Source of the DNA: Candidatus Gastranaerophilales bacterium
GTDB lineage: Bacteria > Cyanobacteriota > Vampirovibrionia > Gastranaerophilales > Gastranaerophilaceae
Direction: 5' to 3'
Assembly (NCBI GenBank): GCA_944326585.1
Contig: CALVEN010000007.1
Location: 282-64,281, forward strand
DNA length: 64,000 nt
The notes beneath the pieces were generated by a model. The model made no database searches. It saw nothing but the letters and a program-made list of their open reading frames with translations, and was not told the origin of the DNA. Positions 10,531-64,000 of this stretch are shown in pieces. The first letter of the stretch is position 1, and each line of letters begins with the position of its first letter. Both the position numbers and the translations under genes were made by a program.

Positions 10531-10536
10531 AATTTT

Positions 10537-10563
10537 AAAAAGCCCTCATTATGAGGGCTTTTT
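10537..10563 (+). terminator. Rho-independent terminator after fabF
   Basis: AAAAGCCCTCATTATGAGGGCTTTT hairpin with a T-run. Confidence 0.85.
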
Positions 10564-10576
10564 AAGGAGTTTAGTT

Positions 10577-11449: not shown

Positions 11450-11457
11450 TCTATAAG

Positions 11458-14400
11458 CTATTGATCAATCAAAACTCTGTCGAGGCAGACTTTTGGCGAG
11501 TATTTCCATTCGCGGTAGGTTATACGTTTGACCTTAAACCCGCAGCGTTCAAGGATTGCCTGTTTTTTCATATTGGAAACGGTTTGTTTTACGTTGTCTT
11601 CAACCCCGTCGATTTCCACAATGAATTTTTTATCCACCAATAAGTCAGCTTTCAAGCCTGCAATTTCGCTTCCCGCAAGAACTTCATGTCCGAGTTCGCG
11701 CATTTCAGATGCTATTTCGCGTTCAAGATTGTTTTTGTATTCGTTTTCGTCGATTTGCAAGTTTTCAAGCGCTGCTTGTTTATTCTGGTATTCTTTTATG
11801 TATGAAATATAGTTTCTGAAATGACCTTCCGGAAGGTTTGTTATGTCGCGCGAAACAAAGTTTACAACCTTGTATCTAGCACGGGTAATCGCAACGTTAA
11901 AGAGGTTCGGTTTTTGTAAAAATGTTGCGCTTTGTGCGTGGCTGTTGTTTGCAAAAGCCCATGACATAAGGATTATATCGCGTTCATCTCCCTGGAATGT
12001 ATGAGCTGTACCGATTTCTACCTGATGTTTTCTGAGCATATGATCTGACAGAACTTTTGAAACAGAGGTTTTCAACTGTTCCACCTGCGCTCTGAACGGT
12101 GAAATTATGCCGATAGATACAGGGTTATCGGGGTTTTTGCGTTCATCTTCTATAATTATTTCGTGTAACTTTTTGATTACGGCTTCGACTTCGGGAAGGT
12201 TGCGTGTTGCGTCATAATCAACTTTGCCTTCCGGCACTTCGACAAGTTCAAGAACCTTTTGACCGCCAAAGTCTTTTCTCATAACCCTTATTCTGTCGCC
12301 GTAAAATTCATGGTTTGAAAATTCTATAATCGGCGGCAGGCTTCTGAAATGTTCGTCAAGCATTACGGAATTCATTGAATAGTAATCCGCAAGGTCGAAC
12401 ATGGAATTTGTTCTGAAACGCCACATTAACTGATATTTGTCAGGAATTCCGTATTGATTTAAGAAAGACTGTTCTTTTGCTTTTTCTAAGAATGACAAAT
12501 GCGGTAATTGTTTGTCGTCGCCCACGATTACTGCGCGTTTTGCGCGGAACATTATCGGGAAGCAGCTTGCAATATCGCATTGTGACGCTTCATCAATAAT
12601 TGCAACGTCAAACATTCCGGGTTTCATAGGCAATGACCCTGAAACCGCATAAGTTGTTACGCACCAGCAGGGGAATGCCTCCAGAAGCGGTCTGAAATCT
12701 TCTTCTTCCAAAATGCGGTTTTGGAGATTTTTTTTGCGTTCAACAAGTGATTTTGCGTGAACTTTTAATCTCTGGCATTTTATCTGGTCGCGCAAAAGCC
12801 CTTTCAAAGCTTCGCGGCGTTTGTTTTTCAAGATATTTACCGCAAGATTTTTTTGTTTTTTCTTCATCTGGCGGATTTGTTCCATAAGCACATGGAGGTT
12901 GCCTGTTTTTTGAATATCAGCTTCAATTTTTCTTAAATTACAGTTCATAAGCGCAACTTCAAGCTCTGCGCTCAGTCTTGAAAGATTTTCATAATTTACG
13001 TCGAATTCGTTCAGTTTGAGAATTTTTTTAAGGTGTCTAAGGCTTGTAAAATTCGCGATATTGGCGAAAAATCCAGCTTTCTCCATATTGTTATGCAAAA
13101 TTTTTATGATTCCTGACACCATATCAATTTCGCTTTTTTTGAGCTGGGTTGTTATGAATTGCATTTGACCGATTGATTTTTCGTGTTCTGTTGTTTCTAA
13201 AGACAGGTCATGCCATTCACGTTCAAGCTTTATAATTTGTTCGCATTTTTTTTCTGTCTGGTTAAGCAAATTCAAATGCTCTTTCATATCTTTTGTGTCG
13301 ACAAGGAGGCTGTCTTCATAGTCGCTGTCAATGTCAACCTTGCCTGACAACAAGTCCTGCAGTTGGTAGCTCAATTGTTTTTGATAATTCAAACGCCCTG
13401 CACGCAGAGCCAAAAACGGCGCGCCGAGTTCATTCAAGCGTTCCGCAACAACGTCGACGGCTTTGTCCATGCGGGAAGCCACAAGAACTGTTTTTCCGTT
13501 TGCAATTAAGTGTGCGACAAGGTTTACGATTGTCTGAGATTTCCCTGTTCCCGGAGGACCTTGTACGGCTATGAATTTGCTGTTATCAATATTTTTGATA
13601 ACTTTTTCCTGTGAATCGCTTAATGATAAAGGAGTTATCGGGTAGAAATCAGTAATTTCATTCAAATCTTTTATCGGAACGGATTTTTCTTTTGCATGAA
13701 CATATTCATCATTAATTATGCTCAAAGCTGTTTCACGGTAAATTCCGCTCGGTTTTTCCGCAATCTGGGTTAATTCGTGCAGCACACCTGCGGTGACTGA
13801 CGGACGTTTTGTCAAAATTATTGCGCTTTGATAGGTTACAACAACTTTATCAACTTTTATTGAGGATTTTTGCGCTGTTTCGCGTTCTTCTTCTTCAATT
13901 AATTCGTCAATATTTTCCGAATCTATTTTTTCTTTGTAAAAATCTTTTGCTTCATCTTTGGAAATATTATCTTCTGTTTCGTTGTCATTTGAGGTTTGGC
14001 TGATTTCAATTTCAGGAACAACTGACTGTAAGGTTGTCAGAAATATGTCTAACTTTTCCTGTGTAATAGGCAAATCCGGCACTACATCCAGAATGCCTTC
14101 CAAAAGCAGGTCGACTTCATCTTCGTCATCGTTTTTTTTCATTAAAGCTGCAAGTGCGCCTGTATTCAGAGAAAGCATTTCATCCTGCGGTATACAGTTT
14201 ATGTTTACCCCGTTTCTTTCAAGCCGGCATGGGACATACAAAAGCGGAGTCAAAAATTCGTTTTGTTTTTTGGATTTGTTGTTTTTGCCAACAAGAAAAA
14301 GATAACCGTAAATCAGGTATTTGTCTTTTGTGCTTAATTCACTTTGAATCATGAGTTCCGTCAGCTTGCTGTCGGAACCGTCAAGTTTAAGATATTCTTC

Positions 14401-15723: not shown

Positions 15724-15792
15724 TATAATAAATTCAAAAGGAGAATGATAGATATGACTAGTTTGAATAACGGGGGGGGGCGACTCTCCTAA
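15721..15792 (+). promoter_or_regulatory. Pilin-family expression cassette 1: extended -10, SD, ATG, poly-G, premature stop
   Basis: TGATATAAT 15721-15729; AAGGAGA 15738-15744; ATG 15745 and 15754 (in frame); G9 15772-15780; TAA 15790-15792. Short frame encodes M(ID)MTSLNNGGGRLS*. Confidence 0.7.
15772..15780 (+). repeat. G9 homopolymer (candidate slipped-strand tract)
   Basis: Nine consecutive G in an AT-rich context, at the same relative position as the tracts at 38022, 43499, 51035 and 60113. Confidence 0.95.
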
Positions 15793-20307: not shown

Positions 20308-20414
20308 TCCATTACCAGTATAACTCGTTTTTGAAAGTATTTCAAGAATGATATCAAGAAATATGATTAGAATTTGGGATATATAGAAATTGTACTGCGC
20401 GCCGTAGACGGCGT

Positions 20415-21342
20415 ATCTACAATAGTAGAAATTTAGTATAGGTATTAAACCGGCAATTATACAATGCACTGCGGTGGCGATCTACAATAGTAGAAATTTA
20501 ATATAGGTATTAAACTCGTGGAGTAAATCAACGTGCTTGCCCATCTACAATAGTAGAAATTTAATATAGGTATTAAACAAATAGAATCATCAAAAGGCAC
20601 CTTTTAATCTACAATAGTAGAAATTTAATATAGGTATTAAACATGGTTCGTCTGCCTTATATTCGCTTCGGATCTACAATAGTAGAAATTTAATATAGGT
20701 ATTAAACTTCAAGACCGCCAAACATGCCCAAAATATCTACAATAGTAGAAATTTAATATAGGTATTAAACATTGCGTCAAACCTTGGCAACGGCAAATCT
20801 ACAATAGTAGAAATTTAATATAGGTATTAAACAGGAAGATTATGAACAACAAGAAGAATAATCTACAATAGTAGAAATTTAATATAGGTATTAAACAAAA
20901 AATCATGACAATAATACACGCTTTATCTACAATAGTAGAAATTTAATATAGGTATTAAACATCAATTTTGCAACAGCAAGTATCAGTGATCTACAATAGT
21001 AGAAATTTAATATAGGTATTAAACATGACAAGATATGAAGATAGTTTCGTCTATCTACAATAGTAGAAATTTAATATAGGTATTAAACAGCCGAAGCGAG
21101 CCTTCACACACTGGAGGATCTACAATAGTAGAAATTTAATATAGGTATTAAACGAGGCTATGGTAGTTTCTGGCGATGTATCTACAATAGTAGAAATTTA
21201 ATATAGGTATTAAACAAATGAATGCATATCTTGATACGGCGGAATCTACAATAGTAGAAATTTAATATAGGTATTAAACAACTCTCGGGCATCAATGCTA
21301 CTTCATATCTACAATAGTAGAAATTTAATATAGGTATTAAAC
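20415..21342 (-). CRISPR. Type V-A CRISPR array, 15 repeats and 14 spacers
   Basis: 36-nt repeat, minus-strand reading GTTTAATACCTATATTAAATTTCTACTATTGTAGAT. This carries the Cas12a crRNA handle AAUUUCUACU-AUU-GUAGAU. Repeat starts on the + strand: 20415, 20480, 20543, 20607, 20672, 20735, 20797, 20861, 20925, 20989, 21053, 21118, 21180, 21244, 21307. Spacers are 26-29 nt. The leader-distal repeat (20415-20450) has one substitution. Confidence 0.97.
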
Positions 21343-21479: not shown

Positions 21480-21755
21480 CTAATCTACTATTATTATATC
21501 ACTTTCTTCATTTTTTAAAAAGCCATATTTAGAAATTTTACAATTTTCACTTGTTTCTATTATTAAAACACTATCAGTTTGTTTAAATAAATTTTTAAAA
21601 ACACTATCTATTTCATTTTTTATAATATCTAATAATCGTTTGCTATTTTGTATTTTATATACAGAAAATTGCATTCGGTTCCCGTATTTTCGTAAAAATT
21701 TTGAAAATTGTGTTCTTAATTTATCATCCGCTATATCATAACTTACTAATATCAT
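21480..21755 (-). CDS. cas2: CRISPR-associated endoribonuclease Cas2
   Basis: MILVSYDIADDKLRTQFSKFLRKYGNRMQFSVYK is a canonical Cas2 N-terminus. 4-nt overlap with cas1. Confidence 0.92.
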   Translation of the reverse strand: MILVSYDIADDKLRTQFSKFLRKYGNRMQFSVYKIQNSKRLLDIIKNEIDSVFKNLFKQTDSVLIIETSENCKISKYGFLKNEESDIIIVD

Positions 21756-22710
21756 AAGACCGCCTTTGGGAATTTATTTATATCATCATCTTTCATAAAC
21801 CATCTGTAATATTGTTGTATAAAATCAAAAATATTTTCTTTATAATTCAATATTTCTTCTAAAATTTGACAAACAAAATTGTTGCTGTCTTTCCAATCTA
21901 ATTGATATTGTTCTTTATGTTGTGTAAATTTATAATTTTCTATTTGTTTTAAATTTATCATTTTCCTTATTTTATAATCCACAATAGGTCTAAATGGTTC
22001 TATAATATCGCATACTAAAGATTTTCTTTTATAAAATTCTTTATGTAAATTACCTTTATAAATGTCAAAACCGTATATGTTTAATATTGCTTCTATATAA
22101 TTAAATAATACAGTATACCCTATATCTAAAAGTAAATTTATTTTATCTCTTTTTACTCTCGGCTGGCGTCCCTGCCAATCAAAAGGTTTAAACATCCTAT
22201 TAAAATAAATTTTTGCACATGTTCCCTCAATGCCCATAATTTCGTAATTATTATAATCAGACTTTGATAATTTATTTATTGAATCATTTAATTTTTTTAT
22301 TCCGTCTTTAAATTCTTTATCTCTTAATTTCTTTAAAAAATTTCTTTGATTAGATATTTTATTTATAATCAATTGCTTCGCAATTTCTTCACTGCGAGTT
22401 GTTATATATTGTTTTTCATGAAGTAAAAAATTACCTTCCAATACAAAATTTATTGTTGAGTAAACTTTAAAACCGGGTGTAAATAATACTATTGAAAATC
22501 CAAATTTTTTGCTCCTTGAAATTATTCCGCTTGTTAAGGTAATACCACCAACTATAAAAAGTGCAAATAAATTATAGCAACTTAATTGAAATTTAATTTT
22601 ATCTTCTTTGTCAAAGATTACAACATTATCATTTTTGAAGGAAATTTTGTCCCTTCATGCGTAAAGACAATTATAACTTTTTTCTCTAAAAAATCTGGTT
22701 TGGTCAGCAT
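21752..22710 (-). CDS. cas1: CRISPR-associated integrase Cas1, interrupted by a 1-nt frameshift near codon 23
   Basis: ATG 22710 overlaps the cas4 stop (ATGCTGA) and encodes MLTKPDFLEKKVIIVFTHEGTK. The -1 frame continues ISFKNDNVVIFDKEDKIKFQLSCYNLFALFIVGGITLTSGIISRSKKFGFSIVLF... into the track ORF 21752..22441. One extra A in the A4 run at 22645-22648 would give a 319-aa Cas1. Confidence 0.88.
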
Positions 22711-23264
22711 AATAAACTCCTGTCACAGCTTGGTTCATATATACAATTTTTACATTTGTCTATATTTTGTGCTTTAAATGTATGAATATCAAAATCGTGA
22801 ATATCCTTGATTAACTTTCGGAATTTGTTATCAGTTTCTTGGTCTTCTTTAGGGAGTTTGATGTCATAATTTTTATTATCTTTAATACTGTGAAATCTTA
22901 TTTTTTTAACTTCATAACCCATCTCAATTAATGCATAATATTGTGCATATAATTGAAATACATAACCGTCGTATATTTTTATTATTTTATTCTTTCGTTC
23001 GGTTAAAATACCTGTTTCTATATCAAATGTATCAATCTTTCCGGCAATATTAAATTCTGAACAAAATATGTTTATTCCCTGTAAAATAGTTTTTTTATCC
23101 GAATATAATTGTTTGTCAATTGTCTTATGAGCATTAGTTCCTGAAGTTTGTTTTGTTGATTGATACACAGATTTTTCTAATGTCCCGTATAACTTATGAA
23201 AATAAATTGATACGGGACAAAAGATAAAATCATTTAGATATGAGATTAATATTGTTTCTTCCAT
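22704..23264 (-). CDS. cas4: CRISPR-associated exonuclease Cas4
   Basis: N-terminal Cys (FCPVSIYF), RecB-like D...ERK core, C-terminal CKNCIYEPSC cluster. 1-nt overlap with cas12a (TAATG). Confidence 0.9.
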   Translation of the reverse strand: MEETILISYLNDFIFCPVSIYFHKLYGTLEKSVYQSTKQTSGTNAHKTIDKQLYSDKKTILQGINIFCSEFNIAGKIDTFDIETGILTERKNKIIKIYDGYVFQLYAQYYALIEMGYEVKKIRFHSIKDNKNYDIKLPKEDQETDNKFRKLIKDIHDFDIHTFKAQNIDKCKNCIYEPSCDRSLLC

Positions 23265-26200
23265 TATTCACTATCAAGTTCTTGTATATAAGTTAACCAG
23301 TCAGAATTTTTTATTGCATAAGCTATTTTTTCACCTCCATTTGTATGCTTTATACGATTAAGGATAATTAGTCCTTTTCTGGCTATATTATAAGCTCCGT
23401 TCGCGTCAGCATTTTGAGGCAAAGAATTATCACAACATCTTGAATCAAAGAAAAATCCTTTTTTATTTTTTATCGGTGATAATATATAATCTTTTTCGTT
23501 ACCTGTAATACTATTTCTTAATTGTACTAAAAGCTTAAATAAAATTCCAAAACCATTAAATCCGTCTTTTTCGGCAACTGCATTAAAGAATTTTGTATCC
23601 GCCTTGTCAAGTATTTCATTTTTTATGTTTTGATAATCTATATTATATTTATCAAATAAAATTTGAAATTCCTTGGTTAAATTTACGGTAATATTATCCC
23701 ATTCATTATTCTTCTTAGGATTTCGGAATGTTCGTATTCTGTCACCGTATGTACAAAGAGTCCATTCAGTTCTGTTTCCGGAAGATTTATCACTGAAATT
23801 TTTATAATCAAAATTAAATTCAAAATAATTTTCTTGATTATTAAATTTTATAAAATTAAATTTTTTAATAAATTCTTTATCAACTTTTTTTAAATCAAAT
23901 AAATTTACAAAACCCGTAGTCGGATCAATTTTACTCGTCCACACTGCAGGAATATAAAATATTATTCCATTTTGTTTTGTACTATTTATTTCTTTTGTTG
24001 CAAGCTGGTATGCATTCATCAATCCGCCCTGTTCAAATTTGTTTTGAATTGATTTATCAACAAGATAACTTAGTTTATCAATTAATTTTGTTTCAAATTT
24101 ATCATATACGGATTTTTCGACTTTTTTTCTTGAATTTTTAAAGCCGCTATTTAAATCTTCCAGTACTATAATGGCATTGTATTTGAACATTAAACGGGTA
24201 AGTTCATGCACAACCTGACTCATATATCCTTCTTTTAATTCTTTTATGTTTTGAATAGTACCCCACGATTTTCTATTGGCATCTCTTTCGGCCTCTTTTC
24301 TTTCGAGTAAATCATGGTAATTTGTATTTTCGATTATATTTAAAGAACGTTGTTCAATAATTTCACCGTTCATGTTGATAACGCTTATGTATAGAAGATG
24401 TCTTTCGCCTCTATCAATACCTATAATGTGAATATCATCAGAGTTTTTAATTTCATTGTTTGTAAAATCATTTAATTTGTTTATGTTTTGTGCTTTAAAA
24501 TTCAATGTAATCGGAACATGGAACTGAAATTTATCCAATGTAAATCTTTTATCTTTGATTAAATCATATTCAAAAGTACTGTATTTTTTAGGATTATCAG
24601 GGTTTTTATTTTCAATGGGTTCATTTTTAGGATGAGTTACTTTTGTTTCAATACTCTTTTTTCTGTAGAAAATTTCCGCTCCGCCGTTTAATTGATATAT
24701 GACATCTTTTAAGTTGTCTGCATCAAATAAGGCTCTCCAATACATTGTATGCAGATTCGGACGACCTTTTGAATATTTTGAAAAATCTTTGTTATAAATT
24801 TGGAAAAGATAAAGTTTACCTTCTTCTACAAGTTGATTTATGTAACTTTCAGAAATATTTGTAAAAGAAATTTTATATCCTTGCAGCTCAACTTCCCGAT
24901 AAAATTGACTTATATCTTGATATGTATTAGTATCCGAAAATTTAAAGTTGAATTTTGACCAGTCTTCATGCTTATTTATAGATTGTTTATAAAAATCTAT
25001 TAGTTCATGACAAAATCCTAAATCAAAATTTGCTCCTTTTTTATATAATCCTTTTTCATATTTGGCTATCAATTCATCGGAAGGATTAAATTCTTCTTTT
25101 CTGGAGTCTGAAAATAATACTTTTGGAAGCATTTTATTGGGACCGGGAAGCAATTTATATTCTATTTTTTCATAATATGATAAAGCTGACTCTTTATCAT
25201 TATTAATAAAAATTTTTCTGTTATTTTTATTGATAATTCCAATGTAATAATTTCCGTCTTTAATTAACAATGTCCCTAAATTTGCTTCTTCTTTATTCAA
25301 GTCCCAGCCGCTTAAAAAAGTAGGGCAATCAAAATTAAGTTTAAATTTTTCGACAGAATAAGGTTTTTTGGTTAAATAATTTCTTGTTTTGTTATAAACC
25401 GGAATTATTTCAGATAACAGTTCATAATTAAGCGAATTATAAAATTCTAAATCTGTTTCAATTGATTTGTTTTTCGGAATAAGGTGTTTTATAAGCATCT
25501 GTACATTTTTTAGTGAATCAAGGAAATCTTTTATTTTTTCAACTGCTTTTTTGTCTTGTATCAATTGTGTAGATGTTTCATCATATTCTTTTTCAAGTAT
25601 AGGTTTTACTTCAGAATAAGTTTTATCTATGAGTTTAAAATGTTCATTTATTTTATCTTTAAAATAGTTATAAAGTTTACCTTCATTGTTGCTATCTTTG
25701 TCATATTTTGATATAAGTTCTTCAATTCTATAAAGTGAAATTTCTTTAATTTTTTTTAATTCGTTATCTTTTTTGTCTGTATATTTTTCTGTTCCGTAAG
25801 CCAGTTTACCTTTATAATTATTGTCATATTCCATACTCAAAAGATAATTAATATAGCCCCAATCTTTGTAGATATTTTGGCTTATTCCTGTATTATCATC
25901 CAGAATTAAATAAATTTCTTCTGTATTATAGTTAGATATATTTTCAATAACATTTTCAAATGATTTATTTTCTATGAAAGCATCAGAAAATATTTTAAAA
26001 TAGTTATTAATGAGCTCAGTTACCTGTTTATCAGATTCAATCGTATTAAATTTAAAAGAAACAGAATTTGCATCACTTAAAATTTGCTTATAAAGCTGTT
26101 TTAATTTTGGGATTTTAATTTTTGTATCTTGAATATATTTATTTACTATTTCATTTATACCCTGTATTTTTTTATCATTTGTTGCTTTTCCGGAAATAAT

Positions 26201-26923
26201 AAGATTATATTCTTCAATTTGCCTTTGATTTAAAACATGTGTATAATTTTCAACGGTAGAAAAATATTCATCACAATCAAGTCCTAAATTTTGTTTTATT
26301 GTGTTTTTTATTTCAGGAATATTTTCTGAAATTTTATTAAATGCTTTAATATTCTTTAAATAAATAGGCAGATTTTCATTAATTAACCTGTAAGCTATAG
26401 ACGTATGTTTTTCTTCATTTGAATACATATTTTTTCGGTTTGTATCAAAACCTGAAAAATACGTTGTGAATTTTTCAAACACTTTTATTTCTTCAAGGAT
26501 TTCATTGTTGTTTTTATAATATTCTTGTAAATTTTTATTAATCATGTCTTTTCCAAAAAGAGTATTATATTTGGAATTCTTAGTAAATCTATCGGAAATT
26601 TTTTGACGTAATAATTTTTCTATACTTGAAAATTCTTTTTCTTCTTTTTCAGATAAATTTTGGCGGTTAAAAAATTCTGTATATTGTATTAATAAACATT
26701 TAAAATTTTCATCATTAAAATTATCCAAACATTCATTAATGAAATATTTATGATATTCATCACAATATTTTTTAATTTTTTGATATAATATCGCCTTTTT
26801 TTCATCTTCTTTTAAAATATATTCCGCAAAATACTCCTTTGTTTTTCCAATCGGAATAAGCTCAAATCTTAAAGTTTTTGAAACTTTAAATAAATTGTGA
26901 AAACAGTCATAAAAATTTTTCAT
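23264..26923 (-). CDS. cas12a: Cas12a (Cpf1), type V-A effector, 1219 aa
   Basis: N-terminus FKVSKTLRFELIPIGKT. RuvC-I IGIDRGERHLLY, RuvC-II IVLEDLNSGFK, RuvC-III DADANGAYNIARKG. AGGAG lies 6 nt before the ATG. The repeat type matches. Confidence 0.95.
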   Translation of the reverse strand: MKNFYDCFHNLFKVSKTLRFELIPIGKTKEYFAEYILKEDEKKAILYQKIKKYCDEYHKYFINECLDNFNDENFKCLLIQYTEFFNRQNLSEKEEKEFSSIEKLLRQKISDRFTKNSKYNTLFGKDMINKNLQEYYKNNNEILEEIKVFEKFTTYFSGFDTNRKNMYSNEEKHTSIAYRLINENLPIYLKNIKAFNKISENIPEIKNTIKQNLGLDCDEYFSTVENYTHVLNQRQIEEYNLIISGKATNDKKIQGINEIVNKYIQDTKIKIPKLKQLYKQILSDANSVSFKFNTIESDKQVTELINNYFKIFSDAFIENKSFENVIENISNYNTEEIYLILDDNTGISQNIYKDWGYINYLLSMEYDNNYKGKLAYGTEKYTDKKDNELKKIKEISLYRIEELISKYDKDSNNEGKLYNYFKDKINEHFKLIDKTYSEVKPILEKEYDETSTQLIQDKKAVEKIKDFLDSLKNVQMLIKHLIPKNKSIETDLEFYNSLNYELLSEIIPVYNKTRNYLTKKPYSVEKFKLNFDCPTFLSGWDLNKEEANLGTLLIKDGNYYIGIINKNNRKIFINNDKESALSYYEKIEYKLLPGPNKMLPKVLFSDSRKEEFNPSDELIAKYEKGLYKKGANFDLGFCHELIDFYKQSINKHEDWSKFNFKFSDTNTYQDISQFYREVELQGYKISFTNISESYINQLVEEGKLYLFQIYNKDFSKYSKGRPNLHTMYWRALFDADNLKDVIYQLNGGAEIFYRKKSIETKVTHPKNEPIENKNPDNPKKYSTFEYDLIKDKRFTLDKFQFHVPITLNFKAQNINKLNDFTNNEIKNSDDIHIIGIDRGERHLLYISVINMNGEIIEQRSLNIIENTNYHDLLERKEAERDANRKSWGTIQNIKELKEGYMSQVVHELTRLMFKYNAIIVLEDLNSGFKNSRKKVEKSVYDKFETKLIDKLSYLVDKSIQNKFEQGGLMNAYQLATKEINSTKQNGIIFYIPAVWTSKIDPTTGFVNLFDLKKVDKEFIKKFNFIKFNNQENYFEFNFDYKNFSDKSSGNRTEWTLCTYGDRIRTFRNPKKNNEWDNITVNLTKEFQILFDKYNIDYQNIKNEILDKADTKFFNAVAEKDGFNGFGILFKLLVQLRNSITGNEKDYILSPIKNKKGFFFDSRCCDNSLPQNADANGAYNIARKGLIILNRIKHTNGGEKIAYAIKNSDWLTYIQELDSE

Positions 26924-27154: not shown

Positions 27155-27183
27155 TTGACAAAACAGATAAAAATGGATATAAT
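27155..27183 (+). promoter_or_regulatory. Consensus sigma70 promoter for the fic gene
   Basis: TTGACA (27155-27160), 17-nt spacer, TATAAT (27178-27183). Confidence 0.7.
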
Positions 27184-27209
27184 TGGATAAAAATGGGTAT
27201 AAACGGATA

Positions 27210-28283
27210 ATGGTTAAAGAATCTGATATTAAAATTCCTAATCAAATGCTAACAATTATATCTGAACTTGACGAGTTCAAAGGCAGCTGGAAACTTTTAG
27301 GACAAATGATGCCCGAAAGGTTAAAGACACTCAAAAAAGTGGCTACCATTGAAAGCGTTGGTTCTTCTAACCGTATTGAAGGGAATAAGCTTACAGATAA
27401 GCAGGTTGAAAAGCTTTTATCCAATATAACAAAACAATCTTTTGCTACGAGAGATGAGCAGGAAGTTGCAGGATATGCAAGGTTAATGGATACAATTTTT
27501 GATGACTATGAAGTTATTCCATTGACAGAAAATTATATTAAGCAGCTGCATAAAATACTTTTGCAATATTCAACAAAAGACGAAAAACAAAGGGGTGAAT
27601 ATAAAAAGATTTCAAACGCCGTTGCCGCTTATGATGAAAAAGGTCAGGAGCTTGGTATAGTTTTTGAAACGGCTGCTCCTTTTGAAACACCTTTGAGAAT
27701 GGAAGAGCTTGTTAATTGGACAAGAAAAAACCTTGAAGATAAATTTTTCCATCCTTTAATTGTAATCGGGATTTTTATTGTCGAGTTTTTAGCAATTCAT
27801 CCGTTTGAAGACGGAAATGGCCGATTATCAAGAGCGTTGACTTGTTTATTACTCATGAAAGCCGGTTATACTTATATTTCTTACTGTTCACTGGAAGCAG
27901 TTATTGAAGATAACAAAGAGGGCTATTACAGAGCATTAAGACAAACACAAACAACATTGAGCAATAAAAACCCTGATTTTGAACCGTGGCTGTTATTCTT
28001 TTTGAAATCATTACAAAAACAGAAAATAAGGCTGGAATACAAATTAAATCAAAATAATATCAGTACAAATTCCAATACATCTGATTTATCCGAATTAGAA
28101 TATAAAATTTTAAAATATTTTGACGAAAATGAAAGCGGAACTATTTTAAAACTTGTCGAATATACCCAATCAAATAGAAATACAATTAAAAAAGCCGTTT
28201 CAAGTTTAGTTGATAAGAAATATTTGATTTTACATTCAAAAGGGCGCGGAGCCTGGTATTCTAAAGTAGATAACCATGCATAA
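27210..28283 (+). CDS. Fic/DOC family protein with a C-terminal winged-helix domain
   Basis: Canonical Fic motif HPFEDGNGRLSRAL. The track start TTG 27183 lies inside the -10 box, so ATG 27210 is preferred. Confidence 0.88.
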   Translation: MVKESDIKIPNQMLTIISELDEFKGSWKLLGQMMPERLKTLKKVATIESVGSSNRIEGNKLTDKQVEKLLSNITKQSFATRDEQEVAGYARLMDTIFDDYEVIPLTENYIKQLHKILLQYSTKDEKQRGEYKKISNAVAAYDEKGQELGIVFETAAPFETPLRMEELVNWTRKNLEDKFFHPLIVIGIFIVEFLAIHPFEDGNGRLSRALTCLLLMKAGYTYISYCSLEAVIEDNKEGYYRALRQTQTTLSNKNPDFEPWLLFFLKSLQKQKIRLEYKLNQNNISTNSNTSDLSELEYKILKYFDENESGTILKLVEYTQSNRNTIKKAVSSLVDKKYLILHSKGRGAWYSKVDNHA

Positions 28284-28439: not shown

Positions 28440-28835
28440 TGGTGGAGACGGTGGGACTCGAACCCACGTCCAAAATGGACCAACATAAACCTCTACGTGT
28501 GTAGATACTCATTTTCTCGGCTGATTCAGGAAAGTATCACTACCCTTAAATCAGCCAAAGTATTTTTTTCGGAAATACTTAACCTTTAATGGTTATCTTG
28601 ATACGCCTACCATCATCAACGTACTGCGTCTTGCATAAGTGGACCCCAACAGCCGGCAAGCTGGGCTATTGAAGTGGCTGACTGCGTCTTACGCAGCAAG
28701 AGCGTATGCTCTTGAAAAATCAGCTTTAATTACGTTGTCTTTAGCATTTAATTTGCTATGCTCGTTGATAACCGAGAACAGCGCTCGGACACGCAGCTTA
28801 TATCAATCATCATCCTGTCAAATCCGGACGTCCCC
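28440..28835 (-). ncRNA. ssrA: tmRNA (SsrA), one-piece
   Basis: 5' GGGGACGTCCGGATTTGACAGG. 3' GACGTGGGTTCGAGTCCCACCGTCTCCACCA. Acceptor stem GGGGACG/CGUCUCC with G3:U. Tag reading frame AKDNVIKADFSRAYALAA* (GCT AAA GAC ... GCT GCG TAA). Confidence 0.93.
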
Positions 28836-37291: not shown

Positions 37292-37858
37292 CTAATTTTC
37301 GGCTGTTGCTACATTTACTAACGACGGGCGGAGAACTTTATCTCCCATTTTATACCCCTTTTGCAAAACATTTATAATGGTATGTTCGGGGTGTTCGCTT
37401 GTCGGGGTCTGCATTACGGCTTCATGAAAATTCGGATCAAATTGTTTGCCTTCGGCTTCAATCTCTTCCAAACCCAATTTTTGCAATGTTTCCAGAACCT
37501 GTTTATGAACAAGGTTAAAGCTGTCTTTAACCTGTTTGCAATCTTCCACATTTTCTAATGCTTTTTCACCGCGTTCAAAATTATCAAGGATTTCCGTCAT
37601 TTTTTTAAGGGCATTTTCTGCCCCGTATTTTAAAAGGCTTTCGCGTTCTTGTTCCTGTCTTTTACGGTAATTATCAAAATCTGCGGCAAGTCTTATATAC
37701 TGTTGATTTAATTTGTCATATTCTTCTTGAAGTTTGTTATCTTCAGTATCGGAAGTTGTTTCTTCTTCAATATTTTGTTCTTCTGAAATTTCAGGTTGTT
37801 CTGTGTGTTCAAGTTCCGCGTCTTTTTTAAACGGATTGTTATTGTTTTTGTGACTCAT
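37292..37858 (-). CDS. grpE: Nucleotide exchange factor GrpE
   Basis: RLAADFDNYRKR motif and a typical C-terminal beta domain. Adjacent to dnaJ. Confidence 0.9.
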   Translation of the reverse strand: MSHKNNNNPFKKDAELEHTEQPEISEEQNIEEETTSDTEDNKLQEEYDKLNQQYIRLAADFDNYRKRQEQERESLLKYGAENALKKMTEILDNFERGEKALENVEDCKQVKDSFNLVHKQVLETLQKLGLEEIEAEGKQFDPNFHEAVMQTPTSEHPEHTIINVLQKGYKMGDKVLRPSLVNVATAEN

Positions 37859-37968
37859 AATTTTCCCCTCGTTTAATTATATTATAAGTTATCAAAAGTA
37901 ATAAACAAGTTAAATTTATTATTTTTTAATATTTGAAAAATTGTTTTGTTGCTTTAAATTGAAAAATT

Positions 37969-38063
37969 TGATATAATAAACCCAAAACAAGGAGAGTGTT
38001 GATATGACTAGTTTGAACAACGGGGGGGGGCGACTCCTCCAGGTACAGATAGCAAGGTTTTAG
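37969..38063 (+). promoter_or_regulatory. Pilin-family expression cassette 2
   Basis: TGATATAAT 37969-37977; GGAGAG 37991-37996; ATG 38004; G9 38022-38030; stop TAG 38061-38063. Short frame encodes MTSLNNGGGRLLQVQIARF*. Confidence 0.7.
38022..38030 (+). repeat. G9 homopolymer
   Basis: Nine G. Position equivalent to the other four tracts. Confidence 0.95.
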
Positions 38064-38239
38064 GCGGTATTGGTTGTGTAAAGTTACTAAGATACTATGG
38101 CACTAAGGCACTAAGAAGTAACAGAAAAGTAGGTCGGCATTACCATGCCGACAGAAAAGTTTACTGTCGGGTTAGTAACCCTGACCAACGCGTTACAGAA
38201 AGAATTGACACAACCCCTGAAACAAATTATAATTCTAAT

Positions 38240-39079
38240 ATGATAAACTATAAATCAGAAAACAAAAACGTGAGAGAAGTTCAGTGTAACCACACCCCTC
38301 ACTCTACTCACTCGACTCAAGCAAAACGTGTCGCGTTTACTCTGGCGGAGGGTGCTACGCACGTAGACATGTCAGACAACATTCGTCGTGTGGCATTCAC
38401 TCTGGCGGAAGTTTTGATAACCCTTGCCATAATAGGTATTGTGGCAGCTGTGACAATTCCGACGTTAATAACAAAGTATCAAGAGAAGCAGACAGTAACA
38501 AGGTTTAAGTGGATATATTCAACATTAGCGAATGCTTTCACTATGGCTGTTGCGGAAAACGGGGCGCCTGAAACTTGGGATTTGAATAGTGCTGAAGATA
38601 TGGCAAATATTTTGTCAAAATATATGAGAATTAGTGAAAAATGTTATAATACCGCTGGTTGTTTGCCTCCGGATTTAAATATTGTTGCATTGACTGGCGA
38701 AATGCGTTATACATTACCCGGCAATGCAAATTATGTAAAATCACGTTTTAATAACGGCATAAGCCTTATGTGGTTTGAGCCTCATAAAGGGTGCAGTTAT
38801 TCTTATATTGATACTGATGGCAACCAAATAGATGTAGAAAACAGTTGCGGCTCTTTGTACGCTTTTATCTCAACGAATCGTACAAACAGATATGGTCTTG
38901 ACCATTTTGTTTTTACAGTTACACCGAAGGGAATATTGCCGGGCGGTTATGATTATAATGACAGCAATATAAAGCGGAATTGCACAAAAAATTGGACATC
39001 CGATGGTAATACAAATGGTGCTACCTGCGGGGAATGGATAAGACGCTGGGGTAATGCGGATTATTGGTATGATAATTAA
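38240..39079 (+). CDS. Prepilin-type N-terminal cleavage/methylation-domain protein, paralog 38
   Basis: RRVAFTLAEVLITLAIIGIVAAVTIPTLITKYQEKQT. The frame is open upstream to the G9 tract. Internal ATG 38369 gives MSDNIRRVA|FTLAE. Confidence 0.85.
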   Translation: MINYKSENKNVREVQCNHTPHSTHSTQAKRVAFTLAEGATHVDMSDNIRRVAFTLAEVLITLAIIGIVAAVTIPTLITKYQEKQTVTRFKWIYSTLANAFTMAVAENGAPETWDLNSAEDMANILSKYMRISEKCYNTAGCLPPDLNIVALTGEMRYTLPGNANYVKSRFNNGISLMWFEPHKGCSYSYIDTDGNQIDVENSCGSLYAFISTNRTNRYGLDHFVFTVTPKGILPGGYDYNDSNIKRNCTKNWTSDGNTNGATCGEWIRRWGNADYWYDN

Positions 39080-39106
39080 AAAAAACCGGTTTTAAACCGG
39101 TTTTTT
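39078..39106. terminator. Bidirectional terminator
   Basis: A-run, CCGGTTTTAAACCGG hairpin, T-run, between convergent genes. Confidence 0.8.
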
Positions 39107-39605
39107 ATCTGTAGTTTGTGAATTGCAGCGGATAATCGTATTTGTCTTCGTTTTGTCTGAGCATTTGGATTACCTTTTGTAAATCGTCTTTGTCTTTGCC
39201 GGAAACTCTTACGCTGTCGCCTTGAATTGACGGCTGAACTTTCATTTTCATATCTTTAATATCAGCTGAAATCTTTTTGGCAAGCTCCGGTGTCAGACCT
39301 TTTTTGAGTTTGTAAACCTGTCTTACATTCCCGCCCAAAGCGTTTTCAACAGGCTGCGGATCCAATATTCTTATACTCAGATTTCTTTTCACGAGTTTTG
39401 ACTGCAAGATATCGTAAATGTTGCGTAATTTTGTTTCATCTTTAGTCGTTATTGTGATGGATTTGTCAGCATCCAAATTTATGTCCGAATTCGAATCTTT
39501 CAGGTCAAATCTTGATGAAACTTCGCGTTTTACCTGATCAACAGCATTTACGAGCTCTTGTCTGTCAAATTCTGATACTACATCAAAACTGCAATCTTTT
39601 GCCAT
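39105..39605 (-). CDS. yajQ: YajQ family (UPF0234) nucleotide-binding protein
   Basis: SFDVVSEFDRQELVNAVDQVKREVSSRFDLK is a typical YajQ N-terminus. ~165 aa. Confidence 0.85.
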   Translation of the reverse strand: MAKDCSFDVVSEFDRQELVNAVDQVKREVSSRFDLKDSNSDINLDADKSITITTKDETKLRNIYDILQSKLVKRNLSIRILDPQPVENALGGNVRQVYKLKKGLTPELAKKISADIKDMKMKVQPSIQGDSVRVSGKDKDDLQKVIQMLRQNEDKYDYPLQFTNYR

Positions 39606-43440: not shown

Positions 43441-43510
43441 TGGTATATTATAGAAAACAAGGAGAGTGCAAATGGAAGATATGACTAATTTGAATAACGG
43501 GGGGGGAGCG
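43441..43510 (+). promoter_or_regulatory. Pilin-family expression cassette 3 (in frame)
   Basis: TGGTATATT 43441-43449; GGAGAG 43461-43466; ATG 43472 and 43481; GGGGGGGGAG 43499-43508. There is no stop afterwards. Confidence 0.7.
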
Positions 43511-44608
43511 ACTCTTCTAAGTAGGCAGGACAAGGGTTTTGACGGTATATTTTGGGAAAAGTTACTAAGATACTATGATACTAAGGCAGTAAGAAGTAAC
43601 AGAAAAGTAGGTCGGCATTACTATGCCGACAGAAAAGTTTACCGTCGGGTTAGTAAACCCGACCTACAAGAGAATATGGCTCAGAATGACAAGAATATCA
43701 TCCCTCGCCCCTTGGGGAGAGGGTGTCACGAAGTGACAGGAGAGGGGCTAAGTGACAAAAATGTGAGCAAAGCTCACAGAAAACGCTTAGTGCCTTACTG
43801 CCTTAGTAACTTAGTATCTTCACAAAAAGCCGCGTTTACCTTAGCAGAGGTTTTGATAACCCTCGGCATAATCGGTATTGTGGCAGCGATGACAATTCCG
43901 ACACTTATTACGAATTATCAGGAAAAACAAACAATTTCCAAATTACAAAAAGTCTACGCGTCTTTAAAGAATGCATTTGAACTTGCAAAAGTTGAGCATG
44001 GTGATTATGAAACCTGGTCGTGGAATCAGATTCCTGTAACCAATGGCGCGCGAACACAATATTTTTGGGAAACATATATTTTCCCGCATTTAAAGATTGC
44101 TAAAAAATGTTTCCCGATAACAACGGAATGTGTCGCAGAGGGTATTACAAAATTGAATGGTACGGCTGAATCTGTTGTTACATCTACACATGGTGCTTTT
44201 GTTTTATATGACGGTACATATGTTTATACGTGGGCTGGAGGTTCCGGTTTTCATCCGCATATTTGGGTGTATGCTGATATCAACGGTGAGGCAAAGCCAA
44301 ACGTGGTAGGCAAAGATATATTTACTATGTTTTTCTCGCCAAAAAATCCAGGGAATAAAATCGGCTCGTTTGATGACGATAATAATTTTGTTGACTCAGG
44401 AAAATTATCAACCCCTGCTTACGGATTAAGTTTGTATGGAGATGTAAACGGGGTTACCGTTGAAGATCTTATGGATCCGAATTTTGTTCTGGAAACTGAC
44501 ACAGGTGCCAAGCAAAAACATTGTTGTACCACAGAAGGCACAGGGTATATGTGCGGTGCGGCAATAAAATTAAACGGCTGGAAATTTCCCGACGGTTATC
44601 CCAGATAA
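43472..44608 (+). CDS. Prepilin-type protein, paralog 43; the whole long leader is in frame with the cassette ATG
   Basis: Single ORF MEDMTNLNNGGGATLLSRQDKGF...QKAAFTLAEVLITLGIIGIVAAMTIPTLITNYQEKQT...ADINGEAKPNVVGKDIF. Confidence 0.85.
   Translation: MEDMTNLNNGGGATLLSRQDKGFDGIFWEKLLRYYDTKAVRSNRKVGRHYYADRKVYRRVSKPDLQENMAQNDKNIIPRPLGRGCHEVTGEGLSDKNVSKAHRKRLVPYCLSNLVSSQKAAFTLAEVLITLGIIGIVAAMTIPTLITNYQEKQTISKLQKVYASLKNAFELAKVEHGDYETWSWNQIPVTNGARTQYFWETYIFPHLKIAKKCFPITTECVAEGITKLNGTAESVVTSTHGAFVLYDGTYVYTWAGGSGFHPHIWVYADINGEAKPNVVGKDIFTMFFSPKNPGNKIGSFDDDNNFVDSGKLSTPAYGLSLYGDVNGVTVEDLMDPNFVLETDTGAKQKHCCTTEGTGYMCGAAIKLNGWKFPDGYPR
43499..43506 (+). repeat. G8 homopolymer followed by A-G (an interrupted 10-nt tract)
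   Basis: GGGGGGGGAG occupies the position where the OFF copies have G9. Confidence 0.95.
43517..43872 (+). repeat. 356-bp leader cassette, apparently identical to 51052..51407
   Basis: A by-eye base-by-base comparison found no mismatch between the two intervals. The flanks diverge at once on both sides. Confidence 0.8.
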
Positions 44609-50973: not shown

Positions 50974-51055
50974 TGATATAATAAACCTAAAAAGAAGGAG
51001 AGCTAAAATGGAAGATATGACTAGTTTTAATAACGGGGGGGGGCGACTCTCCTAA
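50974..51055 (+). promoter_or_regulatory. Pilin-family expression cassette 4
   Basis: TGATATAAT 50974-50982; AAGGAGAG 50996-51001+; ATG 51008 and 51017; G9 51035-51043; TAA 51053-51055. Short frame encodes MEDMTSFNNGGGRLS*. Confidence 0.7.
51035..51043 (+). repeat. G9 homopolymer
   Basis: Nine G. Position equivalent to the other tracts. Confidence 0.95.
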
Positions 51056-51407: not shown

Positions 51408-52137
51408 TGGGATAGTAGCAGCAATGACAATCCCGACGATATCGCGTAATATTCAGCATGCCGTACTAAAAAATCAATTCAAGAAATTCTACAGCACTTT
51501 CTGGCAGGCGGTAATCGGTATACAGACAAAAGGAGGCAGACCTGTACAGTGTTATTACTGGGATGGCGCAAATCCATATACGGGCAAATGCACCCCGACA
51601 TGTGATGAAGATGAAAAAAATCAATACGGTAACTGTACTGTATATAGGTGTGCGGAAACAGGAGAACCCATTCCGACGGATATAAACGGAAAGTCTTCGG
51701 AGTGCAGTGATTTTTATGAGGAATTGTTTTTAAAAACATTAAAGACAACAAAAATATGTAAAGATAAGGCATATGAACAGGGGTGCCTGCCGGAAGACTT
51801 CAGAGGTGTGGATGTTGTAAAATCAGAACAAAATCCGGATAAAGAATATGACCCTGCAGGAATTTTTGCTGATTCCCCTGTGAAAAATAATTATCCTGTC
51901 TTTGTGTTAGCTGACGGAACATATATTGTAGGTTATGCTCGTTATTTAGCGGGTTTGCCTATTTTTGTCGTGGACATAAACGGGACTAAAGGTCCAAACA
52001 AATGGGGTTATGATATATTTTCTTTTAGCTTGAGGGGTAATGCGCAAACCGGAATAAATAAATTGAATAGTGCAACTTATGCAACGGAAAAAGGCGGGAA
52101 AACTTTTCAGCAGATGCTGGACGAATGTTTTAAATAG
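51211..52137 (+). CDS. Prepilin-type protein, paralog 51
   Basis: QKAAFTLAEVLITLGIIGIVAAMTIPT, then a mature domain unrelated to paralog 43 but homologous to the partial gene at 1..546. The frame is open upstream to the G9 tract. Confidence 0.85.
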   Translation: MAQNDKNIIPRPLGRGCHEVTGEGLSDKNVSKAHRKRLVPYCLSNLVSSQKAAFTLAEVLITLGIIGIVAAMTIPTISRNIQHAVLKNQFKKFYSTFWQAVIGIQTKGGRPVQCYYWDGANPYTGKCTPTCDEDEKNQYGNCTVYRCAETGEPIPTDINGKSSECSDFYEELFLKTLKTTKICKDKAYEQGCLPEDFRGVDVVKSEQNPDKEYDPAGIFADSPVKNNYPVFVLADGTYIVGYARYLAGLPIFVVDINGTKGPNKWGYDIFSFSLRGNAQTGINKLNSATYATEKGGKTFQQMLDECFK

Positions 52138-57534: not shown

Positions 57535-57681
57535 GGATTTATATAGCAAATTACACAGATACTATAAAAAATGCGTCATTCTGAGAGCTTTAGCCCGAAG
57601 AATCTCATTTATTAAGATACTTCGCTAACGCTCAGTATGACGCTGTTTTGAAAATTGCGGCAGAATTTGCTATATAAATCC
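57535..57681. mobile_element. 147-bp palindromic (MITE-like) element with perfect 18-bp terminal inverted repeats
   Basis: GGATTTATATAGCAAATT (57535-57552) against AATTTGCTATATAAATCC (57664-57681). The interior is also an imperfect palindrome (GCGTCATTCTGAG...CTCAGTATGACGC; AGCTTTAGCCCGAAGAATCT...AGATACTTCGCTAACGCT). Confidence 0.8.
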
Positions 57682-60100: not shown

Positions 60101-60197
60101 TTAAGCTAACTGCCCCCCCCCCCTGAATGAAAAGTAGTTGTTATGCGTATTTGCGCCCATTTTTTAACCTCCAAGTATTCTGTTACTTATTATATCA
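60101..60197 (-). promoter_or_regulatory. Pilin-family expression cassette 5 (minus strand)
   Basis: Minus strand: TGATATAAT (60197-60189); GGAGG (60172-60168); ATG 60160; G11 (60123-60113); TAA 60103-60101. Short frame encodes MGANTHNNYFSFRGGGQLA*. Confidence 0.7.
60113..60123 (-). repeat. G11 (C11 on the + strand) homopolymer
   Basis: Eleven consecutive C on the + strand. Confidence 0.95.
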
Positions 60198-63668: not shown

Positions 63669-63860
63669 AACCCTCACCCGAATTTCTAAACTCGCTGGTG
63701 CTCGTCAAGAAATTCTACCCTCTCCCTCTGGGAGAGGGGTGGCTGAGCCACGACATCATGTTTGATAATTTTGGTATGCCTATTCATGTCTTTGTTAGGG
63801 GTGCCAAAGGCACGACAATACAATGTCATTCTGAGCGCCAGCGAAGAATTCCGGTTGCAG
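63669..63860. repeat. Cluster of GC-rich hairpin modules (intergenic)
   Basis: CCCTCACCCGAATTTCT...AGAAATTCTACCCTCTCCCTCTGGGAGAGGGG; GTGGCTGAGCCAC; GTGCCAAAGGCAC; GTCATTCTGAGCGCCAGCGAAGAAT. The same module types occur in the pilin leaders, mfd and 57535-57681. Confidence 0.7.
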
Positions 63861-64000
63861 GTCGTTATGGTAATACCTGTAAAGTATCTTGTTGAAAGCA
63901 CGATATACAAGCTAATCAGCAATACAAAGAGCATATATAGAGTCAGCCTCGCGTGAACTTGATTTGCCAGCGCAAGTCCTAATAACTTCGAATTGGCGAA

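Follow-up and report, generated by a model that had tools for sequence, protein, structure and literature searches.

How a bacterium might make a pilin from a gene whose start codon stands out of frame with the pilin itself is the question raised by one locus in a 64-kb stretch of DNA (the window; 35.7% GC) from Candidatus Gastranaerophilales. At this locus, the second of five paralogous pilin loci in the window (locus 2), a promoter, a Shine-Dalgarno (SD) sequence, and an ATG precede a run of nine guanines (G9), behind which the reading frame soon closes. The original prediction held that the G9 tract puts a pilin gene out of frame and that one more G restores it, and every coordinate that it gave for the locus was borne out by re-reading of the sequence. 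The features at the 5' end of the locus, together with the open reading frame (ORF) called behind them, are as follows.

37949 to 37977, plus strand: promoter P1, predicted from sequence, with a -35-like TTGCTT (37949 to 37954), a 17-nucleotide (nt) spacer, and the TG-extended -10 element TGATATAAT (37969 to 37977)
37991 to 37996, plus strand: SD sequence GGAGAG, read from the sequence, 7 nt 5' of the ATG
38004 to 38006, plus strand: start codon ATG, opening the codons for MTSLNN, after which the tract begins
38022 to 38030, plus strand: poly-G tract G9; G10 is in frame, and G9 and G11 are out of frame
38004 to 38063, plus strand: short ORF of the G9 state, MTSLNNGGGRLLQVQIARF, a 19-residue peptide with its stop, TAG, at 38061 to 38063
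38240 to 39079, plus strand: ORF of 279 amino acids (aa), MINYKSENKNV..., called by the gene finder in the pilin frame; a candidate for translation from a leaderless mRNA transcribed from the internal promoter P2 (38205 to 38233)

The frame opened at ATG 38004 ends in the G9 state at TAG 38061, as had been claimed, and in the G11 state at a TAG at 38049 to 38051; the stops of the two states fall 7 to 13 codons past the tract. Addition of one G in silico produced a stop-free ORF of 358 codons, MTSLNNGGGATPPGTDSKVLGGIGCVKLLRYYGTKALRSNRKVGRHYHADRKVYCRVSNPDQRVTERIDTTPETNYNSNMINYKSENKNVREVQCNHTPHSTHSTQ...AFTLAEV..., which fuses with the 279-aa ORF beginning at 38240 and stops at 39077. Recomputation revealed no overlooked stop in this frame, which is open into the 38240 ORF as predicted, and the translated strings were reproduced exactly. 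Furthermore, the upstream signals are conserved: the layout TTGCNA-17-TGnTATAAT is kept 5' of most paralogous and orthologous loci, and GGAG(G/A) is found at the same position in about 50 related loci.

Long G tracts in the window are confined to pilin loci. Runs of at least eight G gave 11 overlapping matches, in five tracts, against 0.35 expected, and none of 100 shuffles reached 11. All five G or C runs of at least 7 lie at homologous sites in the five pilin paralogues, each a few codons past the start of its gene (tracts at 15772, 38022, 43499, 51035, and, on the minus strand, 60113). The full-length and truncated products are separated by a single unit in a mutable homopolymer within the coding region, G9 giving 19 aa and G10 giving 358 aa at locus 2, and the other loci behave likewise. 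The four further tracts are the following.

15772 to 15780, plus strand: locus 1, G9 (needs G10), with a leader of 192 codons
43499 to 43508, plus strand: locus 3, the interrupted 10-mer G8-A-G, in frame, within a 378-aa ORF at 43472 to 44608
51035 to 51043, plus strand: locus 4, G9 (needs G10)
60113 to 60123, minus strand: locus 5, G11 (needs G12 or G9), with another set of leader modules

Does the tract length actually vary? The original prediction had suggested a comparison of orthologous loci, and this comparison showed that conspecific strains differ at the slot of locus 2, having G9, G10, or G11 there. The slot, DnaJ-GrpE-pilin-YajQ, was compared in contigs 98.4 to 99.8% identical to the window over about 4 kb, so that the length is polymorphic between conserved flanks. 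G9 was present in the window and in L048, G10 in L052 and L053, and G11 in L054, and L055 and L056 had G9 with another module set; L048 and L049 are 100% identical to the window and hence uninformative on polymorphism. Between L052 and L054, the tract was the sole indel in 3,840 nt. The G10 allele of L052 encodes P0147, a protein of 358 aa that is exactly the one predicted from the added G, which supports the claim that G9 puts the gene out of frame and one G restores it. The G10 allele of L053 encodes P0155, and P0155, P0144, and P0151 are further in-frame forms. In total, at least 8 contigs carried the locus-2 pilin in an in-frame form, and about 20 had gene calls that were out of frame; the 90%-identity cluster of the 279-aa product contained 21 sequences of 236 to 441 residues. 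A further in-frame G10 locus was found in L050 and L051, and positional orthologues across species also differed in their tracts (G9/G8C/G10, G9/G7, G9/G10, and G8AG/G9).

A DNA-pattern search with the shared leader identified 44 loci in six species represented by metagenome-assembled genomes (MAGs), four of which are titled Candidatus Gastranaerophilales and two "uncultured bacterium." The census of 56 tracts, drawn from the window, these six MAGs, and two other assemblies, contained G9 in 43 cases (about 77%), and 40 of the 43 were clearly out of frame. Six of the 56 were in frame (four G10, one G7, and the G8AG of window locus 3), with zero to two per genome. The conserved unit consists of the TTGCNA-17-TG-TATAAT promoter, GGAG(G/A), the ATG, usually 27 nt (18 nt at locus 2), and the G tract, followed on the 3' side by CG(A/T)C, a stop four codons on in the G9 frame, a long leader, and the pilin.

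One apparent always-on allele, the 380-aa P0172 (31 index blocks, 24 contigs read; L057 to L060, 1190 to 1260), was rejected as a gene-calling artefact. Its ATG lies 2 nt past the -10 box and overlaps the SD sequence, and with G9, the TTG that the SD sequence serves as a start is out of frame, as at other loci. Start choices of this type are a systematic annotation artefact in the family.

The predominance of out-of-frame copies might mean that the G9 loci are decaying pseudogenes or that errors of sequencing or assembly in the homopolymer account for the length differences; some of the assemblies are of low coverage, and a few loci carry further defects. However, the downstream ORFs are intact. 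Mature pilin ORFs are full length in nearly all loci and have dN/dS values of 0.06 to 0.26, G9/G9 pairs included (0.06 to 0.12 in G9/G9 orthologue pairs), which argues that the out-of-frame genes are not pseudogenes. The leaders are stop-free in 34 of 35 loci, identical G9 tracts come from different assemblers and studies, in-frame and out-of-frame forms each occur in several independent contigs, and, in the strain pair mentioned above, nothing else is inserted or deleted in 3.8 kb. Decay or error is thus already largely refuted and is a most improbable explanation for the family. The exceptions form a minority with extra frameshifts or truncations in leader or pilin (L029; L039, 6054 to 6750; L031; and L001, 10001 to 11127), and these members are likely decaying copies or assembly errors. 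The tract of L031 (G5AG3), the only one both interrupted and out of frame, heads a truncated pilin.

Intact leaders, selection, and length polymorphism together form the signature of a contingency locus, and we consider slipped-strand phase variation of a dispersed type IV pilin family, with G10 as the ON state, to be the likely explanation of locus 2. Transcription would start from P1 (TGATATAAT, 37969), and ribosomes would begin at ATG 38004 and reach the G tract after six codons. With G10, they would read through a basic leader of 121 codons into A/FTLAEV (the slash marks predicted cleavage) and the 227-aa pilin, and the prepilin peptidase (PilD) would presumably cut off the whole leader on the cytoplasmic face of the membrane. 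With G9 or G11, an early stop would leave the pilin off. Slipped-strand mispairing at replication would alter the tract length, providing a heritable, reversible on/off switch per cell lineage. The same device heads all five pilin genes of the window and about 50 in related genomes, and a population would thereby show a varying subset of pilins, for which the selective agent may be phage, host immunity, or adhesion specificity. With G10 as ON, the mutational resting state would be "off, one step from on."

A different role for G9 would be that of the functional state itself, with programmed recoding, either a -1 ribosomal slip on GGG GGG GGG before CGA or the addition of a G by RNA polymerase, giving low constitutive expression per locus and making DNA length changes incidental. 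The 43 G9 tracts across six species, the conserved G9-CG(A/T)C context with its zero-frame stop four codons on, and the strong purifying selection on G9/G9 pairs are in keeping with it, as is the seemingly looser constraint on tract length where an internal promoter is present. Yet in-frame DNA alleles (G10, G7, and G8AG) occur at several loci, at locus 2 in conspecific strains and multiple contigs, and they make recoding unnecessary; G9, G10, and G11 at one locus form a replication-slippage pattern. The run is thus not a fixed slippery run, and we identified neither a stimulatory structure nor a canonical slippery heptamer. In Campylobacter jejuni, too, contingency loci have a mutational equilibrium at a modal length of 9, G8 being biased to insertion and G11 to deletion (PMC3401435). 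Recoding therefore appears improbable.

What lies between tract and pilin is a leader translated, in the phase-variation reading, only after a change at the tract. Its main features are the following.

38030 to 38395, plus strand: pilin-frame leader, GCG ACT CCT ..., 121 codons, which would need a +1 change at the tract to be translated
38081 to 38122, plus strand: tandem 8-mer module (NNACTAAG), highly conserved among loci
38133 to 38185, plus strand: two palindromic hairpin modules, GTCGGCATTACCATGCCGAC (38133 to 38152) and GTCGGGTTAGTAACCCTGAC (38166 to 38185)
38339 to 38398, plus strand: 60-nt insertion/duplication with direct repeats TTYACTCTGGCGGA as flanks, encoding GATHVDMSDNIRRVAFTLAE

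The frame of this leader is open in a way that the other frames are not. At locus 2, the pilin frame has no stop, versus 9 and 12 in the other two frames, and the net charge of the leader is +9. Across the family, the span from tract to FTLAE ranges from 57 to 192 codons (35 loci); pilin-frame stops are absent from 34 of the 35 leaders, the 9 stops in 4,293 codons all being in L029, and the other two frames contain 345 and 409 stops (about 8 to 9%). Furthermore, no plausible start codon lies close to the pilin in loci 3, 4, and 5, implying that there the pilin can be made only as a fusion begun before the tract. The leaders are basic (median net charge, +11; 17% K+R versus 8% D+E) and have no hydrophobic run, in keeping with an N-in extension that lies in the cytoplasm before the transmembrane alpha-1 helix.

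Conservation of the leader appears not to be that of a protein sequence. Variation in the first module shows no concentration at third positions, and leader dN/dS values are 0.34 to 0.90, though alignments of mosaic leaders are unreliable. Between locus 4 and L010, dS was 0.045 in the leader versus 0.177 in the mature part, which points to nucleotide-level constraint or concerted evolution. As DNA, the leader is pieced together from small palindromic modules and 8-mer arrays. As originally predicted, the first modules of locus 2 are common to loci 1, 3, and 4: about 190 nt match the loci at 15751, 43479, and 51014 with 66 to 85% identity. The middle part described as peculiar to locus 2 is indeed unique inside the window, but the same module is present in leaders of other genomes. 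Loci 3, 4, and 5 have an inverted copy (a CTTAGTNN array) directly before the pilin that is absent from locus 2. Strains with the same pilin differ by whole leader modules, always in frame. The 60-nt duplication occurs in loci 1 and 2 and is absent from the orthologous allele L053/P0155; it holds the palindrome CTACGCACGTAG (38355 to 38366) and an internal ATG (38369 to 38371), from which the canonical short prepilin leader MSDNIRRVA/FTLAEV would be read.

Such a chain of hairpins behind a conserved uORF (an upstream ORF) of 15 to 16 codons, with three GGG codons and an early stop, resembles a structured 5' untranslated region in which a Gly-Gly-Gly attenuator peptide or a riboswitch-like element regulates the pilin and the leader remains untranslated. 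The RNA fold of the locus-3 leader (z = -7.1), with its two 8-mer arms paired, is in line with such a structure, and leaders of the locus-3/locus-4 type form a very stable closed domain; the tandem repeats of the 8-mer arrays permit several pairing registers. In an untranslated leader, however, precisely the pilin frame would not have been kept free of stops at 34 of 35 loci, and in-frame full-length alleles exist. In addition, the locus-2 leader folds with no unusual stability (z = -1.5), and variants of the hairpin modules are mostly stem-breaking, with one compensatory pair. An Rfam scan of the whole window at the gathering threshold and E-value scans of two leaders yielded no RNA family matching the leaders; the only matches were the transfer-messenger RNA (tmRNA) elsewhere in the window and one chance miRNA-like match (E = 0.45). 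We reject an attenuator or riboswitch leader on the grounds of the open frame together with the mostly pair-breaking variants, and the regulatory uORF as a whole has hardly any probability left.

Copies of the leader modules also lie between genes on the minus strand (57580 to 57640 and 63700 to 63890), for example, GTCATACTGAGCG...GCTCAGAATGAC, GTCGTGCCTTTGGCAC, and CCCTCTCCCAGAGGGAGAGGG, implying that the modules are genome-wide repeat elements and not pilin specific. Given the pair-breaking hairpin variants and the lack of an Rfam match, we take the modules to be repeats that a discarded segment tolerates and not a conserved RNA. A bolder combination of these observations, which we regard as rather unlikely, would see the 60- to 190-residue leaders not as ordinary protein sequence but as genome-wide palindromic modules strung together in frame, with nothing preserved in them but basic charge and freedom from stops. 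At the same low level of likelihood, the chain could have become a translation-gated RNA or DNA device: with the tract off, the untranslated hairpin-rich leader, closed in many loci by a long-range helix of about 26 bp beside the pilin start, would silence the pilin; with the tract on, ribosomes would melt it. Equally tentatively, recombination at the shared modules could exchange pilin bodies and promoters among dispersed loci. If true, prepilin leaders and phase-variation units would both gain a new architecture, and a prepilin peptidase would be needed that takes leaders several-fold longer than any described.

Is the tract decisive at locus 2? Missed in the original prediction were a perfect promoter inside the middle part of the leader and the internal start of MSDNIRRVA/FTLAEV at ATG 38369.

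38205 to 38233, plus strand: predicted promoter P2, TTGACA (38205 to 38210), a 17-nt spacer, and TATAAT (38228 to 38233), followed by 6 nt and ATG 38240

P2 matches the consensus at 12 of 12 positions, and two such perfect sites occur in the 64 kb, versus 0.03 expected. The other perfect TTGACA-17-TATAAT, at 27155 to 27183 on the plus strand, has a TG-extended -10 element and lies 5' of the ORF at 27183 to 28283. The hexamers and the 17-nt spacing of P2 are kept in 14 of 40 leaders despite divergent spacers, most copies keeping 6 nt to an in-frame ATG. Several ordinary genes of the window also have their ATG 6 to 7 nt past a TATAAT-like box and lack an SD sequence (40227, 30800, and 14635 on the plus strand; 43402, 55235, and 18048 on the minus strand), which suggests that this organism commonly uses leaderless mRNAs and makes a leaderless mRNA from AUG 38240, in the pilin frame, plausible. 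In L011-657, P2 is followed by a canonical short leader, MANYSMKRA/FTLAEV.

Taken to their limit, these observations would make the tract largely irrelevant at locus 2, expression coming from a leaderless P2 mRNA (AUG 38240) or from ATG 38369 and the P1-ATG-G9 unit being a remnant or a mere modulator. We hold this, as a partial contribution at locus 2, to be unlikely. Between the tract and P2, 12 of 13 P2 loci have a pilin frame that no stop interrupts (746 codons), and the other frames of this segment contain 71 and 77 stops over all 13 loci (887 codons), which argues that translation from the upstream ATG is still under selection. Moreover, locus 2 itself has G9, G10, and G11 alleles, ATG 38369 has no SD sequence at normal spacing (a GGAGG lies 17 nt upstream), and the activity of P2 is a prediction. 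The predicted P2 and ATG 38369 may thus permit tract-independent basal expression, such that G9 would mean low rather than zero expression at locus 2, and they do not make the upstream start redundant.

Several points weigh against slipped-strand phase variation as the full account. At locus 2, the weight of the tract could be lessened by P2 and the internal ATG, and the tract was not pure G9 in 7 of 14 P2 loci versus 4 of 26 loci without P2, a variety not predicted by a purely mutational G9 attractor, although the numbers are small and the loci not independent. The dominance of G9 is compatible with selection for G9 itself, that is, with the recoding judged improbable above. The tract lengths come from assemblies, some of them of 4- to 8-fold coverage in which single tract calls could be wrong; it is from such lengths that we infer the switching and mixture of states within a population, and their rate. 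Lastly, removal of the leader by PilD would be exceptional, since a leader of more than 100 residues exceeds, to our knowledge, the known range of prepilin peptidase substrates. The locus-2 leader comprises 131 residues from ATG 38004, 52 from ATG 38240, and 9 from ATG 38369; it has the positive charge of a type IV prepilin leader but not the usual short length of about 5 to 30 residues.

The product itself has the marks of a type IV prepilin, and the 3' part of the locus is laid out as follows.

38393 to 38467, plus strand: prepilin cleavage/methylation motif A/FTLAEVLITLAIIGIVAAVTIP (Pfam N_methyl, TIGR02532)
38396 to 39079, plus strand: mature pilin, 227 aa plus stop, of the DUF6613 type, identified from the ORF, profile matches, and a model
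39080 to 39106, no single strand: terminator-like hairpin, a bidirectional intrinsic terminator 3' of the pilin gene

Cleavage is predicted between Ala (38393 to 38395) and Phe (38396 to 38398), and the motif (G or A)/F-x-x-x-E with a hydrophobic alpha-1 segment is present at locus 2 as A/FTLAEVLITLAIIGIVAAV. The prepilin motif A/FTLAEVLITLAIIG is recognized by Pfam N_methyl and TIGR02532 in all five pilin genes of the window, with the exception of Pfam at locus 2, where TIGR02532 scored 18.8 (cutoff, 16.3) and Pfam N_methyl scored 17.4, below its cutoff of 21.2; Pfam N_methyl was above the cutoff in three of four paralogues. An AlphaFold2 model of the 279-aa ORF (mean pLDDT, 77) has a predicted pilin-like architecture, with a disordered N terminus of 47 residues, a 53-residue helix (residues 55 to 107), and then a beta-rich domain of 11 strands. 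A Foldseek search of the model against the PDB gave no significant match. Matches to solved pilins span mainly the N-terminal helix, the best being weak (8pfb; E = 0.0014; query residues 1 to 132), and the globular part (DUF6613) matches no solved structure. No pilus machinery genes were found in the 64-kb window; pilA-D and pilT have been reported in a Gastranaerophilus genome (PMC5877343).

The original prediction spoke of a pilin cassette locus. The pilin gene stands, but it is not a cassette of the Neisseria pilS type: the five window loci and nearly all related loci each have a promoter, an SD sequence, an ATG, and a full ORF, no silent 5'-truncated cassettes were seen among them, gene conversion into an expression site was not observed, and the arrangement is thus not one of promoterless, 5'-truncated donors that feed one expression locus. 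The units are monocistronic, occur at 5 to 15 loci per genome, and are dispersed among housekeeping genes, their neighbors in the window including genes for CCA/polyA polymerase, GrpE, a SurA-like protein, and spermidine synthase. A first protein search with the leader found 2 proteins and an exhaustive HMMER search found 19, implying that the leader family is narrow; a scan of JGI metagenomes with the leader pattern found a single contig, with no G tract of at least 7.

The distribution of these units among genomic slots varies. In other strains, a G9 pilin unit lies between the genes for a ketoacyl synthase and a 1,042-aa helicase (L057, 1130 to 2350), and the same slot in the window (10530 to 11460) holds an unrelated 290-aa secreted protein (10577 to 11449), a shared terminator hairpin marking the junction; this implies that pilin units are gained, lost, or replaced at genomic slots. 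In the grpE-yajQ slot, related species (L043, L005, L013, and L036 compared with window positions 37292 to 39605) have quite different pilin bodies, and that of L043 is 88% identical to window locus 3 and not to locus 2, implying that pilin coding parts move between slots behind a conserved leader. The window also opens inside another paralogue of the C-terminal domain of the locus-4 pilin (108 to 530 versus 51711 to 52133; segments 71 to 89% identical), the 5' end of which falls outside the window.

Two further features of the window lie apart from the pilin loci. A CRISPR array of 15 repeats with a spacing of about 64 nt (20402 to 21342), whose repeat end is a Cas12a-type motif (reverse complement, ATTTCTACTATTGTAGAT), adjoins genes for Cas1 and a 1,219-aa Cas12a/Cpf1 with RuvC, REC1, REC2, PI, and NUC domains (21752 to 22441 and 23264 to 26923, both on the minus strand). 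In addition, a tmRNA gene lies at 28440 to 28835 on the minus strand (Rfam RF00023; 135.6 bits).

Gastranaerophilales are uncultured, non-photosynthetic inhabitants of the animal and human gut whose surface presentation is almost unknown, and a multigene poly-G pilin repertoire bears directly on it. Contingency-locus biology has so far been described mainly in pathogens (Campylobacter and Neisseria) and recently in Bifidobacterium. A long, repeat-built, apparently translated leader challenges the textbook short prepilin leader and bears on the length of leader that a prepilin peptidase can process. For annotation, gene callers choose arbitrary internal ATGs or an ATG 5' of the likely transcript start, and as a result the same pilin stands in databases at 236 to 441 residues. 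The tracts could also serve as markers of within-host population dynamics in metagenomics.

How does this device compare with known systems? Simple-sequence-repeat phase variation in Neisseria or Haemophilus is of the same general kind. As in the poly-G/C loci of C. jejuni, an intragenic G tract near the 5' end frames a surface gene, many loci are involved, and the modal length is 9. Unlike in C. jejuni, the tracts here belong to a non-photosynthetic gut relative of the cyanobacteria and to one paralogous pilin family with a common promoter-start-tract unit, and they lie more than 100 codons 5' of the mature protein, within a leader that would be discarded. The functionally closest case is that of the sortase-dependent pilus genes bbr_0113 and bbr_1889 of Bifidobacterium breve, in which a G tract splits a signal-peptide ORF from the pilin ORF and the reference is off (PMC9187656). 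There, too, a pilus subunit of a gut commensal is assembled from signal and body joined after replication slippage at a G tract; however, B. breve has sortase pili, a Sec signal, and two loci, in contrast to the type IV-type prepilins, 5 to 15 loci, and long non-Sec leader found here.

Neisseria pilC has a poly-G tract in its signal-peptide region, and outer-membrane protein genes of Helicobacter pylori have CT repeats in their signal sequences. In both, as here, the repeat lies in a cleaved N-terminal part and the mature protein is unaltered, but the signal peptides are ordinary short ones, and PilC is a tip adhesin rather than a pilin family. The Neisseria pilE/pilS system likewise has multiple pilin sequences per genome and conserved 5' regions, and here bodies also appear to move between slots; it differs in that each copy here has its own promoter, SD sequence, ATG, and terminator. 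The Rickettsia palindromic elements, in-frame selfish palindromic repeats within ORFs, are similar by analogy only: the palindromic leader modules also occur between genes and are present, absent, or rearranged in frame, but there is no sequence relationship, and the modules here gather in a segment removed from the protein and under little amino acid constraint. A full-text literature search combining Gastranaerophilales or Melainabacteria with pilin or phase variation turned up no account of such a system. The switching principle is familiar; what is new is the lineage in which it occurs, the number of genes in the family, a very long, apparently translated leader built of repeats, and the predicted leaderless promoter embedded in it.

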